NCBI RefSeq assembly: GCF_003018115.1
Contig: NZ_CP027457.1
Length of the DNA stretch: 64,000 bases
Origin: Escherichia coli
Lineage (GTDB): Bacteria; Pseudomonadota; Gammaproteobacteria; Enterobacterales; Enterobacteriaceae
Reading direction: 5' to 3' (one strand)
In this document: in pieces, positions 1 through 63,000 of the stretch
How positions within the stretch are numbered: position 1 is the stretch's first letter
Layout: every line of letters begins with the position of its first letter
The notes under the pieces: generated by a model
Database searches by the model: none
What the model saw: the letters and a program-made list of their open reading frames with translations, nothing else
Told to the model about the DNA's origin: nothing
Position numbers and translations under genes: made by a program

Positions 1-513
1 CGTCGCTTGGCAAAACTGCCAAAACCGGTGATCTGTGCAGTCAATGGCGTGGCGGCAGGGGCTGGCGCAACACTGGCACTGGGTTGCGACATCGTTATTG
101 CTGCCCGTTCAGCAAAATTCGTCATGGCTTTTAGTAAGTTAGGCTTAGTACCCGATTGCGGTGGAACCTGGTTACTGCCACGCGTTGCTGGGCGAGCGCG
201 CGCCATGGGGCTGGCACTGCTGGGGAATCAACTGAGTGCTGAACAGGCGCACGAATGGGGGATGATCTGGCAGGTTGTTGATGATGAAACGCTGGCAGAT
301 ACCGCGCAACAGCTGGCGCGGCATCTGGCGACACAACCGACATTTGGTCTTGGACTTATCAAGCAAGCGATAAATAGCGCTGAAACCAATACGCTTGATA
401 CGCAACTGGATCTGGAACGCGACTATCAGCGACTTGCCGGACGGAGCGCAGATTATCGTGAAGGTGTCAGTGCGTTCCTGGCTAAACGCTCACCGCAGTT
501 CACGGGGAAATAG
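1..513 (+). CDS. paaG: 1,2-epoxyphenylacetyl-CoA isomerase (enoyl-CoA hydratase/isomerase family), 5' end outside window
   Basis: Open frame from window start to TAG at 511-513; C-terminal sequence ...AFLAKRSPQFTGK matches crotonase-fold PaaG; followed 1 nt later by paaH. Confidence 0.85.
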   Translation, partial: RRLAKLPKPVICAVNGVAAGAGATLALGCDIVIAARSAKFVMAFSKLGLVPDCGGTWLLPRVAGRARAMGLALLGNQLSAEQAHEWGMIWQVVDDETLADTAQQLARHLATQPTFGLGLIKQAINSAETNTLDTQLDLERDYQRLAGRSADYREGVSAFLAKRSPQFTGK

Positions 514-514
514 C

Positions 515-1942
515 ATGATGATAAATGTGCAAACTGTGGCAGTGATTGGGAGCGGCACCATGGGGGCAGGCATTGCTGAAGTTGCTGCCAGTCATGGACA
601 CCAGGTTTTACTGTATGACATTTCTGCTGAAGCGCTGACCCGCGCAATCGACGGGATACACGCGCGGCTAAATTCACGCGTGACGCGGGGAAAACTGACT
701 GCTGAAACCTGTGAACGCACATTGAAACGCCTGATCCCGGTGACCGATATTCACGCGCTGGCAGCTGCGAATCTGGTTATTGAAGCGGCGTCTGAACGTC
801 TGGAAGTCAAAAAAGCGCTCTTTGCACAGCTGGCGGAAGTTTGCCCGCCACAAACGCTATTGACCACTAACACTTCGTCAATCTCTATAACCGCGATTGC
901 TGCGGAGGTAAAAAATCCTGAACGTGTTGCGGGGCTGCATTTTTTTAACCCGGCACCGGTGATGAAGTTGGTGGAGGTGGTCAGTGGGCTGGCAACGGCA
1001 GCGGAAGTTGTTGAGCAGTTGTGTGAACTGACATTGAGTTGGGGTAAGCAGCCTGTGCGCTGTCATTCGACTCCTGGATTTATCGTTAACCGTGTTGCGC
1101 GTCCTTATTATTCCGAGGCCTGGCGGGCACTGGAAGAGCAGGTTGCTACACCAGAAGTGATTGACGCTGCACTTCGCGATGGCGCTGGTTTCCCGATGGG
1201 GCCGCTGGAATTAACCGATCTGATTGGTCAGGACGTCAATTTTGCTGTCACCTGTTCGGTGTTTAACGCTTTCTGGCAGGAGCGTCGTTTTTTACCTTCG
1301 CTGGTGCAACAGGAACTGGTGATTGGTGGACGGTTGGGCAAGAAAAGTGGGCTGGGCGTGTACGACTGGCGCGCGGAACGTGAGGCAGTTGTTGGCCTGG
1401 AAGCGGTAAGCGACAGTTTTAGCCCAATGAAAGTAGAAAAGAAAAGTGACGGTGTCACAGAAATTGACGATGTTTTATTGATTGAGACACAAGGCGAGAC
1501 GGCACAGGCGCTGGCAATACGACTGGCACGCCCGGTGGTAGTAGTCGACAAAATGGCGGGCAAGGTGGTGACCATTGCTGCGGCAGCGGTGAACCCGGAC
1601 TCAGCGACCCGCAAGGCCATTTATTACCTGCAACAGCAGGGCAAAACAGTGCTGCAAATTGCAGATTACCCAGGAATGCTGATTTGGCGAACGGTAGCAA
1701 TGATCATCAATGAAGCCCTTGATGCGCTGCAAAAAGGCGTGGCCTCTGAACAGGATATCGATACCGCCATGCGTCTTGGGGTGAATTATCCATATGGCCC
1801 GCTTGCCTGGGGAGCGCAACTTGGCTGGCAGCGAATATTAAGGCTCCTGGAAAATCTACAACATCACTATGGCGAAGAACGCTATCGCCCATGTTCATTG
1901 CTGCGCCAACGGGCGCTTCTGGAGAGCGGTTATGAGTCATAA
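515..1942 (+). CDS. paaH: 3-hydroxyadipyl-CoA dehydrogenase (NAD-binding)
   Basis: ATG at 515 (MMINVQTVAVIGSGTMGAGIAEVAA, Rossmann GxGxxG); the listed ORF start at 395 overlaps paaG and is rejected; 475 aa. Confidence 0.9.
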   Translation: MMINVQTVAVIGSGTMGAGIAEVAASHGHQVLLYDISAEALTRAIDGIHARLNSRVTRGKLTAETCERTLKRLIPVTDIHALAAANLVIEAASERLEVKKALFAQLAEVCPPQTLLTTNTSSISITAIAAEVKNPERVAGLHFFNPAPVMKLVEVVSGLATAAEVVEQLCELTLSWGKQPVRCHSTPGFIVNRVARPYYSEAWRALEEQVATPEVIDAALRDGAGFPMGPLELTDLIGQDVNFAVTCSVFNAFWQERRFLPSLVQQELVIGGRLGKKSGLGVYDWRAEREAVVGLEAVSDSFSPMKVEKKSDGVTEIDDVLLIETQGETAQALAIRLARPVVVVDKMAGKVVTIAAAAVNPDSATRKAIYYLQQQGKTVLQIADYPGMLIWRTVAMIINEALDALQKGVASEQDIDTAMRLGVNYPYGPLAWGAQLGWQRILRLLENLQHHYGEERYRPCSLLRQRALLESGYES

Positions 1943-2354
1943 GGCCTGGCAAAATGCCCATGCAATGTATGAGAACGATGCCTGCGCCAAAGCGCTTGGC
2001 ATCGACATTATCTCAATGGATGAAGGCTTTGCTGTAGTGACCATGACCGTCACTGCACAAATGCTTAATGGTCATCAAAGTTGCCACGGCGGGCAGCTAT
2101 TTTCACTGGCTGATACTGCCTTTGCCTACGCCTGCAATAGCCAGGGGCTGGCAGCCGTCGCTTCTGCCTGCACGATTGATTTTTTGCGTCCAGGCTTTGC
2201 CGGAGACACCTTAACTGCTACTGCGCAGGTACGTCATCAGGGCAAGCAAACCGGTGTTTACGACATCGAAATTGTTAACCAACAACAAAAAACGGTTGCG
2301 CTGTTTCGCGGTAAATCTCACCGCATCGGCGGCACCATTACAGGAGAAGCCTGA
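1932..2354 (+). CDS. paaI: hydroxyphenylacetyl-CoA thioesterase (hotdog fold)
   Basis: Internal ATG of ORF 1869-2354 giving MSHKAWQNAHAMYEND..., 140 aa; overlaps paaH 3' end as in paa operon. Confidence 0.85.
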   Translation: MSHKAWQNAHAMYENDACAKALGIDIISMDEGFAVVTMTVTAQMLNGHQSCHGGQLFSLADTAFAYACNSQGLAAVASACTIDFLRPGFAGDTLTATAQVRHQGKQTGVYDIEIVNQQQKTVALFRGKSHRIGGTITGEA

Positions 2355-3559
2355 TGCGTGAAGCCTTTATTTGTGACGGAATTCGTACGCCAATTGGTCG
2401 CTACGGTGGGGGATTATCAGGTGTTCGGGCTGATGATCTGGCTGCTATCCCTTTGCGGGAACTGCTGGTGCGAAACCCGCGTCTCGATGCGGAATGTATC
2501 GATGATGTGATCCTCGGCTGTGCTAATCAGGCGGGAGAAGATAACCGTAACGTAGCCCGGATGGCGACTTTACTGGCGGGGCTGCCGCAGAGTGTTTCCG
2601 GCACAACCATTAACCGCTTGTGTGGTTCCGGGCTGGACGCACTGGGGTTTGCCGCACGGGCGATTAAAGCGGGCGATGGCGACTTGCTGATCGCCGGTGG
2701 CGTGGAATCAATGTCACGAGCGCCGTTTGTTATGGGCAAGGCAGCCAGTGCATTTTCTCGTCAGGCTGAGATGTTCGATACCACTATTGGCTGGCGATTT
2801 GTGAACCCGCTCATGGCTCAACAATTTGGAACTGACAGCATGCCGGAAACGGCAGAAAATGTAGCTGAACTGTTAAAAATCTCACGAGAAGATCAAGATA
2901 GTTTTGCACTACGCAGTCAGCAACGTACGGCAAAAGCGCAATCCTCAGGCATTCTGGCTGAGGAGATTGTTCCGGTTGTGTTGAAAAACAAGAAAGGTGT
3001 TGTAACAGAAATACAACATGATGAGCATCTGCGCCCGGAAACGACACTGGAACAGTTACGTGGGCTGAAAGCACCGTTTCGTGCCAATGGGGTGATCACC
3101 GCAGGCAATGCCTCCGGGGTGAATGACGGAGCCGCTGCGTTGATTATTGCCAGTGAACAGATGGCAGCAGCGCAAGGACTGACACCGCGAGCGCGTATCG
3201 TAGCCATGGCAACCGCCGGGGTGGAACCGCGCCTGATGGGGCTTGGTCCGGTGCCTGCAACTCGCCGGGTGCTGGAACGCGCGGGGCTGAGTATTCACGA
3301 TATGGACGTGATTGAACTGAACGAAGCATTCGCGGCCCAGGCGTTGGGTGTACTACGCGAATTGGGGCTGCCTGATGATGCCCCACATGTTAACCCCAAC
3401 GGAGGCGCTATCGCCTTAGGCCATCCGTTGGGAATGAGTGGTGCCCGCCTGGCACTGGCTGCCAGCCATGAGCTGCATCGGCGTAACGGTCGTTACGCAT
3501 TGTGCACCATGTGCATCGGTGTCGGTCAGGGCATCGCCATGATTCTGGAGCGTGTTTGA
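2354..3559 (+). CDS. paaJ: 3-oxoadipyl-CoA / 3-oxo-5,6-dehydrosuberyl-CoA thiolase
   Basis: 401-aa ORF; thiolase motifs ([17 protein letters not shown]); ATG overlaps paaI stop (ATGA). Confidence 0.9.
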
Positions 3560-3585: not shown

Positions 3586-4899
3586 ATGATAACCAATACA
3601 AAGCTTGACCCGATTGAAACCGCGTCTGTTGATGAGTTACAGGCGTTGCAAACACAGCGTCTGAAATGGACGCTCAAACACGCGTATGAAAATGTCCCGA
3701 TGTATCGGCGCAAATTCGACGCAGCAGGCGTACATCCTGATGATTTCAGGGAACTTTCAGACCTGCGTAAATTTCCCTGTACCACCAAACAGGATCTGCG
3801 CGACAACTATCCTTTCGACACCTTTGCCGTGCCGATGGAACAAGTGGTGCGCATTCATGCTTCTTCGGGAACCACAGGTAAACCGACAGTTGTCGGCTAT
3901 ACGCAAAACGATATTGATAACTGGGCCAATATTGTAGCGCGTTCGTTGCGTGCGGCGGGTGGCACGCCCAAAGACAAAATTCATGTCGCCTATGGTTACG
4001 GGCTGTTTACTGGTGGGCTGGGTGCGCACTATGGTGCCGAACGTCTGGGCGCTACGGTGATCCCGATGTCTGGCGGGCAGACAGAAAAACAAGCGCAACT
4101 GATCCGCGATTTTCAACCAGATATGATCATGGTTACGCCATCTTATTGCCTTAACCTGATTGAAGAGCTGGAGCGGCAGTTGGGCGGTGATGCCAGCGGT
4201 TGCTCGCTGCGGGTTGGCGTGTTTGGTGCTGAGCCGTGGACACAGGCCATGCGTAAAGAGATTGAACGGCGTCTGGGGATCACCGCACTGGATATTTATG
4301 GCCTGTCAGAAGTGATGGGGCCGGGGGTGGCGATGGAGTGTCTGGAAACTACCGACGGCCCAACTATTTGGGAAGATCATTTCTATCCTGAAATTGTTAA
4401 TCCTCATGACGGCACACCGCTTGCCGATGGCGAACATGGCGAACTGTTATTCACCACGCTGACCAAAGAAGCATTGCCGGTCATTCGTTACCGCACGCGT
4501 GATTTAACCCGACTGTTACCAGGAACGGCGCGGACTATGCGCCGTATGGATCGCATCAGCGGACGTAGCGATGACATGTTGATCATTCGCGGTGTAAATG
4601 TCTTCCCGTCACAACTGGAAGAAGAGATTGTCAAATTTGAACATTTATCGCCGCATTACCAACTGGAGGTGAACCGCCGGGGGCATCTTGATTCACTTTC
4701 TGTGAAAGTGGAGTTGAAAGAAAGTAGCCTGACATTGACGCATGAGCAGCGTTGCCAGGTGTGCCACCAGCTACGCCATCGGATTAAGTCGATGGTGGGG
4801 ATTTCTACCGATGTGATGATCGTTAACTGTGGCAGTATCCCGCGTTCAGAAGGCAAGGCGTGTCGGGTGTTTGATCTGCGCAATATTGTTGGTGCCTGA
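3586..4899 (+). CDS. paaK: phenylacetate-CoA ligase
   Basis: Internal ATG giving MITNTKLDPIETASVDELQALQ..., 437 aa; adenylate-forming motif SSGTTGKPT. Confidence 0.9.
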   Translation: MITNTKLDPIETASVDELQALQTQRLKWTLKHAYENVPMYRRKFDAAGVHPDDFRELSDLRKFPCTTKQDLRDNYPFDTFAVPMEQVVRIHASSGTTGKPTVVGYTQNDIDNWANIVARSLRAAGGTPKDKIHVAYGYGLFTGGLGAHYGAERLGATVIPMSGGQTEKQAQLIRDFQPDMIMVTPSYCLNLIEELERQLGGDASGCSLRVGVFGAEPWTQAMRKEIERRLGITALDIYGLSEVMGPGVAMECLETTDGPTIWEDHFYPEIVNPHDGTPLADGEHGELLFTTLTKEALPVIRYRTRDLTRLLPGTARTMRRMDRISGRSDDMLIIRGVNVFPSQLEEEIVKFEHLSPHYQLEVNRRGHLDSLSVKVELKESSLTLTHEQRCQVCHQLRHRIKSMVGISTDVMIVNCGSIPRSEGKACRVFDLRNIVGA

Positions 4900-4902
4900 C
4901 GT

Positions 4903-4952
4903 GTCGTATGGCCCTGGTGGGGTAAAGCGCCAGGGCCAGAAGTCGATACGAC
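4903..4952. promoter_or_regulatory. interrupted GC-rich stem-loop between paaK and paaX (8-bp core stem GGCCCTGG/CCAGGGCC with flanking GTCGTAT/ATACGAC arms); possible attenuator or REP-like element
   Basis: Inverted repeat read directly from sequence; no U-tract follows, so not a canonical intrinsic terminator. Confidence 0.3.
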
Positions 4953-4999
4953 CTGTGCTATGATTCATAAATCACAACAATAACAACAGACTGAATCGA

Positions 5000-5950
5000 A
5001 TGAGTAAACTTGATACTTTTATCCAACATGCTGTAAACGCTGTTCCGGTCAGTGGCACATCTTTGATCTCCTCTCTGTATGGTGATTCGCTTTCCCATCG
5101 TGGTGGTGAAATCTGGCTGGGTAGTCTGGCGGCTTTGCTGGAAGGGCTGGGATTTGGTGAGCGTTTCGTGCGCACCGCTTTGTTTCGTCTTAATAAAGAA
5201 GGCTGGCTGGATGTTTCCCGCATCGGGCGACGCAGTTTCTATAGCCTCAGTGATAAAGGCTTGCGCCTGACGCGACGGGCAGAAAGTAAAATTTATCGCG
5301 CAGAGCAACCTGCATGGGATGGTAAATGGCTCCTGTTGCTCTCGGAAGGTTTAGATAAAGCGACGCTGGCTGATGTCAAAAAGCAGTTGATCTGGCAAGG
5401 TTTTGGCGCACTGGCACCCAGCCTGATGGCATCGCCGTCGCAAAAACTGGCGGATGTACAGACACTTTTGCATGAAGCGGGTGTGGCGGATAACGTGATT
5501 TGTTTTGAAGCGCAAATACCACTGGCGCTTTCTCGTGCAGCACTGCGTGCCAGAGTGGAAGAGTGCTGGCATTTAACTGAACAAAATGCCATGTACGAAA
5601 CCTTTATTCAGTCATTCCGCCCGCTGATGCCGCTGTTAAAAGAGACGGCAGACGAGTTAACCCCGGAGCGTGCATTTCATATTCAGCTTTTACTGATCCA
5701 TTTTTATCGCCGTGTCGTCCTTAAAGACCCATTGTTGCCGGAGGAGTTGCTTCCGGCTCACTGGGCAGGGCATACGGCGCGTCAGCTGTGTATCAACATT
5801 TATCAGCGCGTAGCGCCTGCTGCTTTAGCGTTCGTTAGTGAAAAAGGTGAAACCTCGGTCGGTGAACTGCCTGCGCCGGGAAGCCTGTATTTTCAACGTT
5901 TTGGCGGCTTGAATATTGAACAGGAGGCGTTATGCCAATTTATCAGATAG
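5000..5950 (+). CDS. paaX: phenylacetyl-CoA-responsive transcriptional repressor of the paa operon
   Basis: 316-aa [22 protein letters not shown]...; position after paaK. Confidence 0.9.
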
Positions 5951-6522
5951 ACGGTCTGACTCCAGTTGTGCCAGAAGAGAGTTTTGTCCATCCGACAGCG
6001 GTATTGATCGGCGATGTTATTCTCGGCAAGGGCGTTTACGTTGGGCCAAATGCCAGTCTGCGTGGCGATTTTGGTCGTATCGTGGTGAAAGATGGTGCGA
6101 ACATTCAGGATAATTGCGTTATGCACGGTTTTCCCGAGCAGGATACTGTCGTTGAAGAAGATGGACATATTGGTCATAGCGCTATCCTTCACGGCTGCAT
6201 TATCCGCCGCAATGCATTAGTGGGAATGAACGCGGTAGTGATGGACGGTGCGGTGATTGGCGAGAACAGCATTGTTGGCGCATCCACATTTGTGAAAGCC
6301 AAAGCAGAAATGCCTGCTAATTACCTGATTGTAGGCAGCCCGGCGAAAGCGATTCGTGAACTTAGTGAGCAGGAGCAGGCATGGAAAAAGCAGGGTACGC
6401 ATGAGTATCAGGTGCTGGTGACACGCTGTAAGCAGACGTTGCATCAAGTTGAGCCATTGCGGGAAGTTGAATCCGGCAGGAAACGCCTGGTATTTGATGA
6501 GAATCTGCGACCAAAACAGTAA
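5932..6522 (+). CDS. paaY: hexapeptide-repeat (gamma-carbonic-anhydrase-like) thioesterase
   Basis: 196-aa [32 protein letters not shown]...; overlaps paaX 3' end. Confidence 0.85.
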
Positions 6523-60073: not shown

Positions 60074-63000
60074 ATGAGCGGAAAACCAGCGGCGCGTCAG
60101 GGAGATATGACTCAGTATGGCGGTCCCATTGTCCAGGGTTCGGCAGGTGTAAGAATTGGCGCGCCAACTGGCGTGGCGTGCTCGGTGTGTCCGGGCGGGA
60201 TGACCTCGGGCAACCCGGTGAACCCGCTGCTCGGTGCAAAAGTACAGCCCGGCGAGACGGACCTTGCGCTGCCCGGCCCGCTGCCGTTCATTCTCTCCCG
60301 CACCTACAGCAGCTACCGGACCCGGACGCCTGCACCGGTGGGCGTTTTCGGCCCCGGCTGGAAAGCGCCTTCTGATATCCGCTTACAGCTACGTGATGAC
60401 GGACTGATACTCAACGACAACGGCGGGCGGAGCATTCACTTTGAGCCGCTGCTGCCAGGGGAGGCGGTGTACAGCCGCAGCGAGTCCCTGTGGCTGGTGC
60501 GCGGTGGTAAGGCAGCACAGCCGGACGGCCATACGCTGGCACGGCTGTGGGCGTCGCTGCCGCCGGATATCCGGTTAAGCCCGCATCTTTACCTGGCGAC
60601 CAACAGCGCACAGGGGCCGTGGTGGATACTGGGGTGGTCTGAGCGGGTGCCGGGTGCTGAGGACGTACTGCCAGCGCCGCTGCCGCCGTACCGGGTGCTT
60701 ACCGGGATGGCGGACCGCTTCGGGCGGACGCTGACGTACCGGCGTGACGGACGGTGCCGGGCGTGAGTTCCGTCTGGTGCTGACCACACAGGCGCAGCGG
60801 GCGGAAGAGGCCCGGCAGCAGGCGGTCGTCGCCGGAGCAAAACGACCGGACATTCCTGATTCACTGCCGGAGAGCACAGAGTACGGCCCCGACAGGGGTA
60901 TCCGTCTTTCAGCGGTGTGGCTGATGCACGACCCGGCATACCCGGAGAATCTGCCCGGTGCGCCACTGGCGCGGTACACGTATACGGAAGCCGGTGAACT
61001 GCTGGCGGTATATGACCGCAGCAATACGCAGGTGCGTGCTTTCACGTATGACCCGCAGCACCCGGGCCGGATGGTGGCGCACCGTTACGCGGGAAGGCCG
61101 GAGATGCGCTACCGCTACGACGATACGGGGCGGGTGGTGGAGCAACTGAACCCGGCAGGGTTAAGCTACCGCTATCTTTATGAGCAGGACCGCATCACCG
61201 TCACCGACAGCCTGAACCGGCGTGAGGTGCTGCATACAGAAGGCGGGGCCGGGCTGAAGCGGGTGGTGAAAAAAGAACTGGCGGACGGCAGCGTCACGCG
61301 CAGCGGGTATGACCCGGTGGGGCGGCTTACGGCGCAGACGGACGCGGCGGGACGGCGGACAGAGTACGGTCTGAATGTGGTGTCAGTCGACATCACGGAT
61401 ATCACCACGCCGGACGGGCGGGAGACGAAATTTTACTATAACGACGGGAACCAGTTAACGGCAGTGGTGTACCCGGACGGGCTGGAGAGCAGCCGGGCAT
61501 ATGATGAGCTGGACAGGCTGGTAACGGAGACATCGCGCAGCGGGGAGACAGTACGCTACCGCTATGATGATGCGCACAGTGAATTACCGGCCACAACAAC
61601 AGATGCGACGGGCAGCACCCGGCAGATGACGTGGAGCCGCTACGGTCAGTTGCTGGCGTTCACCGACTGCTCGGGCTACCAGACCCGCTATGAATACGAC
61701 CGCTTCGGCCAGATGACGGCGGTCCACCGCGAGGAAGGCATCAGCCTTTACCGCCGCTATGACAACCGTGGCCGGTTAATCTCGGTGAAAGACGCACAGG
61801 GCCATGAAACGCGGTATGAATACAACGCCGCAGGCGACCTGACTGCCCTCATTACCCCGGACGGCAACCGGAGCGAGACACAGTACGATGCGTGGGGAAA
61901 GGCGGTCAGCACCACGCAGGGCGGGCTGACGCGCAGTATGGAATACGACCTTGCCGGACGCATCACCACGCTGACCAACGAGAACGGCAGCCGGAGTGAG
62001 TTTACCTACGATGCGCTTGACCGGCTGGTACAGCAGCGCGGCTTTGACGGGCGGACGCAACGTTACCACTATGACCTGACCGGAAAACTCACGCAGAGTG
62101 AAGATGAGGGGCTTGTCACCCTCTGGCACTACGACGAATCGGACCGCCTCACTCACCGCACGGTGAACGGCGAACCGGCAGAGCAGTGGCAGTATGATGG
62201 CCACGGCTGGCTGACAGAAATCAGCCACCTGAGCGAAGGCCATCAGGTGGCGGTGCATTACGGTTATGATGATAAGGGCCGCCTGGCCGGGGAGCGCCAG
62301 ACGGTGCATAACCCGGAGACGGGGGAACTGCTGTGGCAGCATGAGACAGAGCACGCATACAACGAACAGGGGCTGGCAAACCGCGTCACGCCGGACGGCC
62401 TGCCGCGGGTGGAGTGGCTGACCTACGGCAGCGGTTATCTTGCGGGGATGAAGCTGGGCGGGACACCTCTGGTCGAGTATACGCGGGACCGCCTGCACCG
62501 GGAAACTGCGCGCAGCTTTGGTAACGGAACGGGCAGTACAGCCGCATATGAACTGACCAGCACTTACACCCCCGCAGGCCGGTTACAGAGCCAGCACCTG
62601 AACAGCCTGATGTATGACCGTGACTACGTGTGGAATGACAACGGCGACCTGGTGCGCATCAGCGGCCCGCGACAGACGCGGGAATACGGCTACAGCGCCA
62701 CGGGCAGGCTGGAGAGCGTGCGCACCCTCGCACCGGACCTGGACATCCGCATCCCGTATGCCACCGACCCGGCGGGAAACCGGCTGCCGGACCCGGAGCT
62801 ACACCCGGACAGCACGCTCACGGCGTGGCCGGATAACCGCATCGCGGAGGATGCGCACTATGTTTACCACTATGATGAATACGGCAGGCTGACGGAGAAG
62901 ACGGACCGCATCCCGGCGGGTGTGATACGGACGGACGACGAGCGGACCCACCACTACCACTACGACAGCCAGCACCGTCTGGTGTTCTACACGCGGATAC

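Follow-up and report, generated by a model that had tools for sequence, protein, structure and literature searches.

A highly stable, single-copy stem-loop between paaK and paaX of Escherichia coli: read-through by RNA polymerase and a possible role as an exonuclease barrier

The gap between paaK and paaX in the Escherichia coli paa cluster (phenylacetate catabolism) was found to contain a GC-rich two-tier hairpin whose stability is far beyond chance. The hairpin does not look like an efficient terminator; in uninduced K-12, RNA polymerase mostly reads through it into paaX-paaY. The reading that we favour, and hold with about even confidence, is that this is a stem-loop at the end of an operon that, having no U-tract, lets polymerase pass and blocks 3′-to-5′ exonucleases, potentially on both strands. 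Hairpins of this kind are ordinary; this one is a real feature and unusually stable.

Location and structure of the hairpin

The window, that is, the whole 64,000-nucleotide stretch of E. coli DNA analysed here, carries paaJ at 2354–3559, paaK at 3586–4899, paaX at 5000–5950 (ATG at 5000) and paaY at 5932–6522; coordinates in MG1655 (NC_000913.3) are window positions plus 1,458,539. The paaK coding sequence (+ strand) and its TGA stop codon (4897–4899, + strand) were taken from the open reading frame list and from RefSeq annotation for the corresponding part of K-12. NC_000913.3 has no annotated feature whatever between paaK and paaX.

Inverted-repeat search and folding placed the whole two-tier palindrome, as an RNA hairpin, at 4900–4952 (+ strand), beginning 1 nt past the paaK stop. 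It contains an outer inverted repeat, GTCGTAT (4903–4909) with ATACGAC (4946–4952), and an inner one, TGGCCCTGG (4909–4917) with CCAGGGCCA (4930–4938), both 100% complementary. In the minimum-energy fold, an inner stem of 11 bp, formed by UGGCCCUGGUG (4909–4919, + strand) and CGCCAGGGCCA (4928–4938, + strand), closes the 8-nt loop GGGUAAAG (4920–4927, + strand), and an outer stem of 7 bp pairs CGUGUCG (4900–4906, + strand) with CGAUACG (4944–4950, + strand), with one G.U pair. The alternative outer pairing, in which the 5′ arm GTCGTAT matches 4946–4952 perfectly, is available only in the rare allele carried by the window (G4903, A4908); at −30.9 kcal/mol it is 2.5 kcal/mol worse than the minimum-energy fold.

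A preliminary description of this DNA had reported an interrupted GC-rich palindrome after the paaK stop and before paaX, and its position, structure and gene names proved correct. The inverted-repeat coordinates that it gave were exact, with perfect complementarity. For the outer stem, the perfect repeat is present as described, but the minimum-energy fold uses the shifted pairing 4900–4906/4944–4950.

The + strand RNA from 4895 to 4965 folded at −33.4 kcal/mol, compared with −20.7 ± 3.1 for 200 dinucleotide shuffles, none of which was equally stable (0/200; z = −4.15). The − strand RNA of the hairpin folded at −25.0 kcal/mol (z = −3.26), being weaker because the G.U pairs turn into A-C mismatches, and the single-stranded DNA at −16.3 (z = −4.35). 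Among 12,789 overlapping 60-nt windows of the 64 kb, the hairpin ranked second in stability, behind only one, at about 60.7 kb in GC-rich DNA. Two very GC-rich stretches, 60150–60820 and 62270–62700, hold a cluster of the most stable 60-nt folding windows overall.

The Px promoter and the PaaX operator adjoin the hairpin

The palindrome is followed at once by the promoter of paaXY itself, which the preliminary description had left out. The extended −10 element of Px (TG-c-TATGAT, 4956–4964, + strand) adjoins the hairpin and is not part of it, its TG lying after a 3-nt gap from the end of the 3′ arm. No −35 match was found inside the 3′ arm. The transcription start of Px lies at 4970–4971 (+ strand) by equivalence with K-12, where two data sets report it: SMRT-Cappable-seq lists a paaX-paaY unit starting at 1463509 (window 4970), and Kim 2012 places the paaX start at 1461534 of NC_000913.2 (window 4971), which gives a leader of 29 nt. 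The start is 18–19 nt past the palindrome end (4952). As the hairpin lies upstream of this start, transcripts from Px do not contain it; only RNA derived from upstream or from the opposite strand does.

The PaaX operator (4961–4998, + strand) consists of TGATTC at 4961–4966, a 26-nt spacer and GAATCG at 4993–4998, is conserved in related loci, and overlaps the −10 element and the paaX leader. It fits the published consensus TGATTC(N27)GAATCA, as quoted in PMC9493321. According to this review, which summarises Ferrandez 2000 and Fernandez 2014, PaaX represses Px of the paaXY operon by blocking RNA polymerase. The operator motif TGATTC-N26/27-GAATCA is not within the hairpin, nor is any half-site of it, and lies downstream; the hairpin differs from this immediate neighbour in having no PaaX half-site and in being upstream of the start.

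At 4996 (alignment column 107), the G of K-12 replaces a T shared by the window and the six remaining Escherichia alleles, which marks a change in the K-12 lineage. In the K-12 Px operator, this G turns the right PaaX half-site into GAAGCG instead of GAATCG.

Variation of the hairpin within Escherichia

All eight sampled Escherichia alleles, the divergent lineage L002 included, had folding energies between −28 and −37 kcal/mol, and pairing was retained in 95% of pair cells across the alleles. L002 is considered a divergent lineage because its allele is not found in complete E. coli genomes, where the best match is 89%. The window differs from K-12 at 4903 (G; A in K-12) and 4908 (A; C in K-12). 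The K-12 allele forms an almost continuous 20-bp helix with a 3-nt bulge (−37.2 kcal/mol), which the two substitutions of the window weaken by one G.U pair and one mismatch; jointly, they create the perfect 7-bp GTCGTAT arm. The GTCGTAT/ATACGAC pairing is impossible in K-12 and in five other aligned E. coli alleles, and its restriction to a rare allele was not part of the preliminary description. Only 7 of 3,165 genomes were at least 99% identical to the window over the 60-nt query, and 3,116 fell in the 95–99% band. Template switching within the palindrome was considered as a source of the changes at 4903 and 4908; because the new pairing and the inner stem are out of register by 7 nt, a simple in-register switch does not account for them.

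Variation among the Escherichia alleles was concentrated in the 5′ arm and the loop, and the 3′ arm was invariant except in L002. Three transitions in the 5′ arm (columns 11, 14 and 23) retain pairing as G.U, which holds for the + strand RNA only, and the pair 14/58 is A-U in K-12, G.U in most alleles and G-C in L002. Three other changes broke pairs. Among the disruptive variants that are tolerated are T to G in the inner stem (strains 120899 and 90-3040) and, in the window itself, the C-to-A change at 4908. Covariation was no better than in shuffles, and no pair of the allele alignment showed a two-sided change relative to its commonest form. On the sequence evidence, this pattern hints at an RNA-level constraint on the sense strand.

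A single-copy element in a slot with changing occupants

The copy number of the hairpin was determined with a 60-nt query (E ≤ 10, 11-nt words). The element was found in one place per genome in 3,165 E. coli genomes (highest, 2), always at the paaK-paaX locus; its 28-nt core is single in the window and also unique in E. coli genomes. An Rfam E-value scan of 4500–5400 returned no family at its gathering score and chance-level eukaryotic matches only; the best overlapping one, to a eukaryotic lncRNA model, scored 21 bits where the gathering score is 55. Like REP/BIME elements, the hairpin is an imperfect palindrome outside genes at an operon end. Membership in that family was rejected: it does not have many dispersed copies, and it does not match the REP-like units of the Klebsiella and Kluyvera loci (the REP consensus was compared with the hairpin by eye only). 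The core motif CCCTCTCCC/GGGAGAGGG of another dispersed palindrome was absent from the whole window. The hairpin is single-copy, and this sequence occurs only in Escherichia.

We compared the slot that holds the hairpin, from the paaK stop to the Px −10, across genera. A scan with PaaX gave 80 Enterobacteriaceae loci, most of which kept paaK immediately upstream of paaX, and 64 loci with a paaK-paaX gap of 400 nt or less were compared. In nearly all 64, TGCTATGAT was found 44 nt before the paaX ATG and the PaaX box was conserved too, so that the −10, the start site and the operator form a block at a fixed distance from the paaX ATG. Conservation begins abruptly at about −17, and everything upstream changes among genera, with a stretch between the paaK stop and the Px −10 of 16–310 nt.

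The slot held at least 20 nt in 62 of the 64 loci, and all 62 folded at −15 kcal/mol or better, 54 of them with z < −2 relative to mononucleotide shuffles. In only 7 of the 62 did the 8 nt following the last stem contain 5 or more T. Single CCCTCTCC...GGAGAGGG hairpins occupy the slot in Leclercia, Silvania, Lelliottia, Citrobacter and Yokenella, REP-like units in Klebsiella, Raoultella and Kluyvera, and one to seven copies of a CCCTCTCCC/GGGAGAGGG/GGGTGAGGG element, which we take to be of the type called 'boxC', in Enterobacter and Pseudocitrobacter (examples of slot elements are L028 2143–2500 and L016 2359–2460). The element seen in Enterobacter belongs to a dispersed repeat family, found at a median of 5 places per E. 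coli genome; Pseudocitrobacter faecalis has a tandem array of about 7 units of it in a 357-nt gap. The slot of Rosenbergiella, only 16 nt long, has no hairpin.

When the E. coli hairpin was aligned with the other genera by MAFFT, the stems were not placed in register and the slot sequences were unrelated to it. A GGCCCT...AGGGCC stem base common to Silvania was noticed by eye and is too short for a claim of homology. The REP/BIME and CCCTCTCCC...GGGAGAGGG...GGGTGAGGG repeats thus resemble the E. coli hairpin in occupying the same slot (in Enterobacter, Lelliottia, Klebsiella, Kluyvera, Citrobacter and others), but their sequences cannot be aligned with that of the hairpin, which is itself not a genomic repeat.

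A slot that is structured almost everywhere while its contents turn over fits selection for some hairpin at this place; the pattern is also compatible with an insertion-tolerant gap adjoining a constrained promoter. On the latter view, the hairpin would be neutral filler: the short stretch from the paaK stop to the Px −10, as the only unconstrained DNA in the gap, would gather palindromes (inserted dispersed repeats or what remains of them after decay) with no role in paa expression, and the RNA ends at the hairpin would be no more than what any stable stem leaves behind. We regard this as possible, though clearly less probable than the barrier role. The unrelated occupants among genera, REP-like units and dispersed elements among them, are in keeping with it, as are the wide range of slot length, the tandem amplification in Pseudocitrobacter, and a turnover for which an insertion hot spot, and not selection, could be responsible. 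Within E. coli, the polymorphism of the 5′ arm and loop, the tolerance of stem-breaking changes and the lack of significant covariation point the same way. Against it, the E. coli element is a single copy outside any repeat family, every sampled allele keeps a strong hairpin, L002 too, and 62 of the 64 loci are structured. The comparison provides a neat small example of unrelated palindromes in one slot beside a rigidly conserved promoter and operator.

Sense-strand transcripts cross the hairpin

The hairpin resembles an intrinsic terminator in being a GC-rich stem-loop (11-bp inner and 7-bp outer stem, −33.4 kcal/mol) immediately 3′ of the last gene of the operon. It differs in having no U-tract, in being crossed by transcripts and in having no mapped sense-strand 3′ end. 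The tail after the stem, ACCUGUGCU, contains 3 U in 9 nt, and a terminator scan (at least 5 T in 8) detected no terminator-like site at the hairpin on either strand.

In SMRT-Cappable-seq data from uninduced K-12, two units labelled 'novel', b1398|b1399 and b1398|b1399|b1400, start at 1461405. This start corresponds to window 2866, inside paaJ, and its single molecules run through the hairpin into paaX or paaY; these full-length reads show that such transcripts reach paaX/paaY independently of Pa and Px. The same tables list neither a b1398-only (paaK-only) unit nor a termination site at the hairpin, and none of these genes or starts appears in the TSS-TTS table. Kim 2012 reported a start inside paaK at 1461300 (window 4737) and attributed it to paaX, and such a transcript must cross the hairpin; a further K-12 + strand start in that study lies inside paaJ at 1459553 (window 2990). 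The Cappable-seq tables have no entry in the paaK-paaX region. No + strand 3′ end at the hairpin is present in the K-12 Term-seq data (Adams et al. 2021, PMC7815308), which were obtained with the operon uninduced. A literature search returned nothing relevant on a described paaK terminator or antisense RNA.

The suggestion in the preliminary description that the palindrome partially terminates the paa transcript was therefore not supported: there is no U-tract, the scan was negative, paaK-paaX(-paaY) molecules cross and no + strand Term-seq end exists. Read-through without 3′ ends at the hairpin had been named there as the outcome that would speak against the proposal, and on the sense strand this is what the uninduced K-12 data show.

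Every one of these transcript data sets came from cells without phenylacetate induction, and from K-12 rather than the window strain, so weak termination of the Pa-driven transcript may still occur. A weak terminator, factor-assisted or non-canonical, would shield paaXY and Px from Pa-driven read-through during induction, and the placement of a GC-rich stem right after the last gene of an 11-gene operon and before an independently regulated promoter is in keeping with such a role. In a few genera, such as Leclercia (L008/L010) and Pluralibacter (L051), the hairpin that occupies this slot is followed by 4–5 U. We nevertheless consider this explanation unlikely, given the 3 U in the tail, the negative scan, the single-molecule reads across the hairpin with no termination site or paaK-only unit listed, the paaX-assigned start at window 4737 and the empty + strand of the Term-seq data.

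RNA 3′ ends on the minus strand

The same Term-seq study (Adams et al. 2021, PMC7815308) lists minus-strand 3′ ends labelled 'antisense to paaK'. They fall at the hairpin: 1463435 (LB, OD 0.4) had about 26,000 reads and 1463441 (M63 glucose) about 28,000, and the 50 nt upstream and 10 nt downstream printed in the table for each end place them at window 4896 and 4902, minus strand. The first is 4 nt beyond the hairpin base and the second 2 nt inside it, and their read counts (about 26–28 thousand) are in the range of neighbouring mRNA ends. RNA 3′ ends at a stem base in vivo, as expected of an exonuclease barrier, are thus found on the minus strand in K-12; the sense strand showed none.

On the minus strand, no U-tract follows the hairpin, and the Term-seq supplement lists no Rho termination region near 1463–1465 kb. 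We read the minus-strand ends as RNA trimmed back to, or stalled at, the stable stem. That the palindrome stabilises the transcript, the other part of the earlier proposal, is accordingly plausible in that stable 3′ ends do occur at it in vivo, but they belong to the opposite strand, which that proposal had not mentioned, and not to the sense strand for which stabilisation was proposed.

Another reading of the minus-strand ends is that an unannotated RNA of that strand has the hairpin as its 3′ end module, and that the hairpin would serve mainly on that strand; the RNA would either be antisense to Px and the 5′ region of paaX or be short and diverge from the Px region. The only 3′ ends mapped at the hairpin are indeed on that strand, and they were obtained with moderate reads in two growth conditions. 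However, no minus-strand promoter match was found between 4900 and 5400 and only one weak, chance-level match further on; Kim 2012 has no minus-strand start near the hairpin; the hairpin is weaker on this strand (−25 versus −33 kcal/mol); and no Rfam family matches. This explanation is therefore judged improbable. The same low probability is assigned to its antisense variant, in which an RNA starting in or near Px or the paaX leader would carry the complement of the PaaX operator and of the 5′ end of paaX and would control the repressor. The minus-strand RNA end in K-12 is the only point of this analysis that could lead somewhere new.

A possible role in RNA stability

If the favoured reading of the hairpin as an exonuclease barrier is right, polymerase, meeting no U-tract, would mostly continue through the hairpin into paaX-paaY. 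After cleavage of the RNA or its termination further downstream, 3′-to-5′ exonucleases would trim it back as far as the hairpin base, leaving a capped paaABCDEFGHIJK message that would outlive the paaXY segment. Because the hairpin is a palindrome, RNA of the opposite strand would be capped and protected likewise. We infer that the hairpin may stabilise the sense paa transcript and may in this way set the ratio of enzymes to regulators. If it does set the lifetimes of the enzyme and paaXY messages, it would help to tune the induction of phenylacetate catabolism, which would be of modest importance; the pathway is linked through PaaX to the control of penicillin acylase.

The classic example of a stem-loop that protects mRNA is the REP hairpin between malE and malF of E. 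coli. The paaK-paaX hairpin resembles exonuclease-protecting stem-loops in being stable, GC-rich, free of a U-tract, located after a coding region in a multi-gene transcript and permissive to read-through, and in having RNA 3′ ends at its base, here on the minus strand. It differs from protecting hairpins of the REP type in being a single copy of unique sequence, and its stabilising role is putative.

That the palindrome acts instead at the DNA level, as a protein-binding site or a cruciform modulating Px, is highly improbable: its 3′ arm occupies the −35 position and is invariant in the sampled E. coli alleles, and the folding of single-stranded DNA is significant, but Px is an extended −10 promoter with cross-genus conservation only from about −17 and a freely replaced upstream region, the PaaX box lies downstream, outside the hairpin, and arms of 9–11 bp with G.U-type variation suit RNA better than a protein site.

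Distribution of the paaK-paaX junction

A 701-nt query across the hairpin matched 3,165 of 5,426 complete E. coli genomes at 95–100% identity, and the matches always lay beneath paaK and paaX. Three of the roughly 3,170 copies of the junction were plasmid-borne rather than chromosomal. In O145:H28 strains, paaF is followed almost directly by a C-terminal piece of paaK, which is annotated as a hypothetical protein and marked incomplete (L082, RM9872, 1-410). The arrangement suggests that a deletion has removed paaG and the genes after it, including most of paaK; despite the apparent loss, these strains retain the hairpin, Px and paaX.
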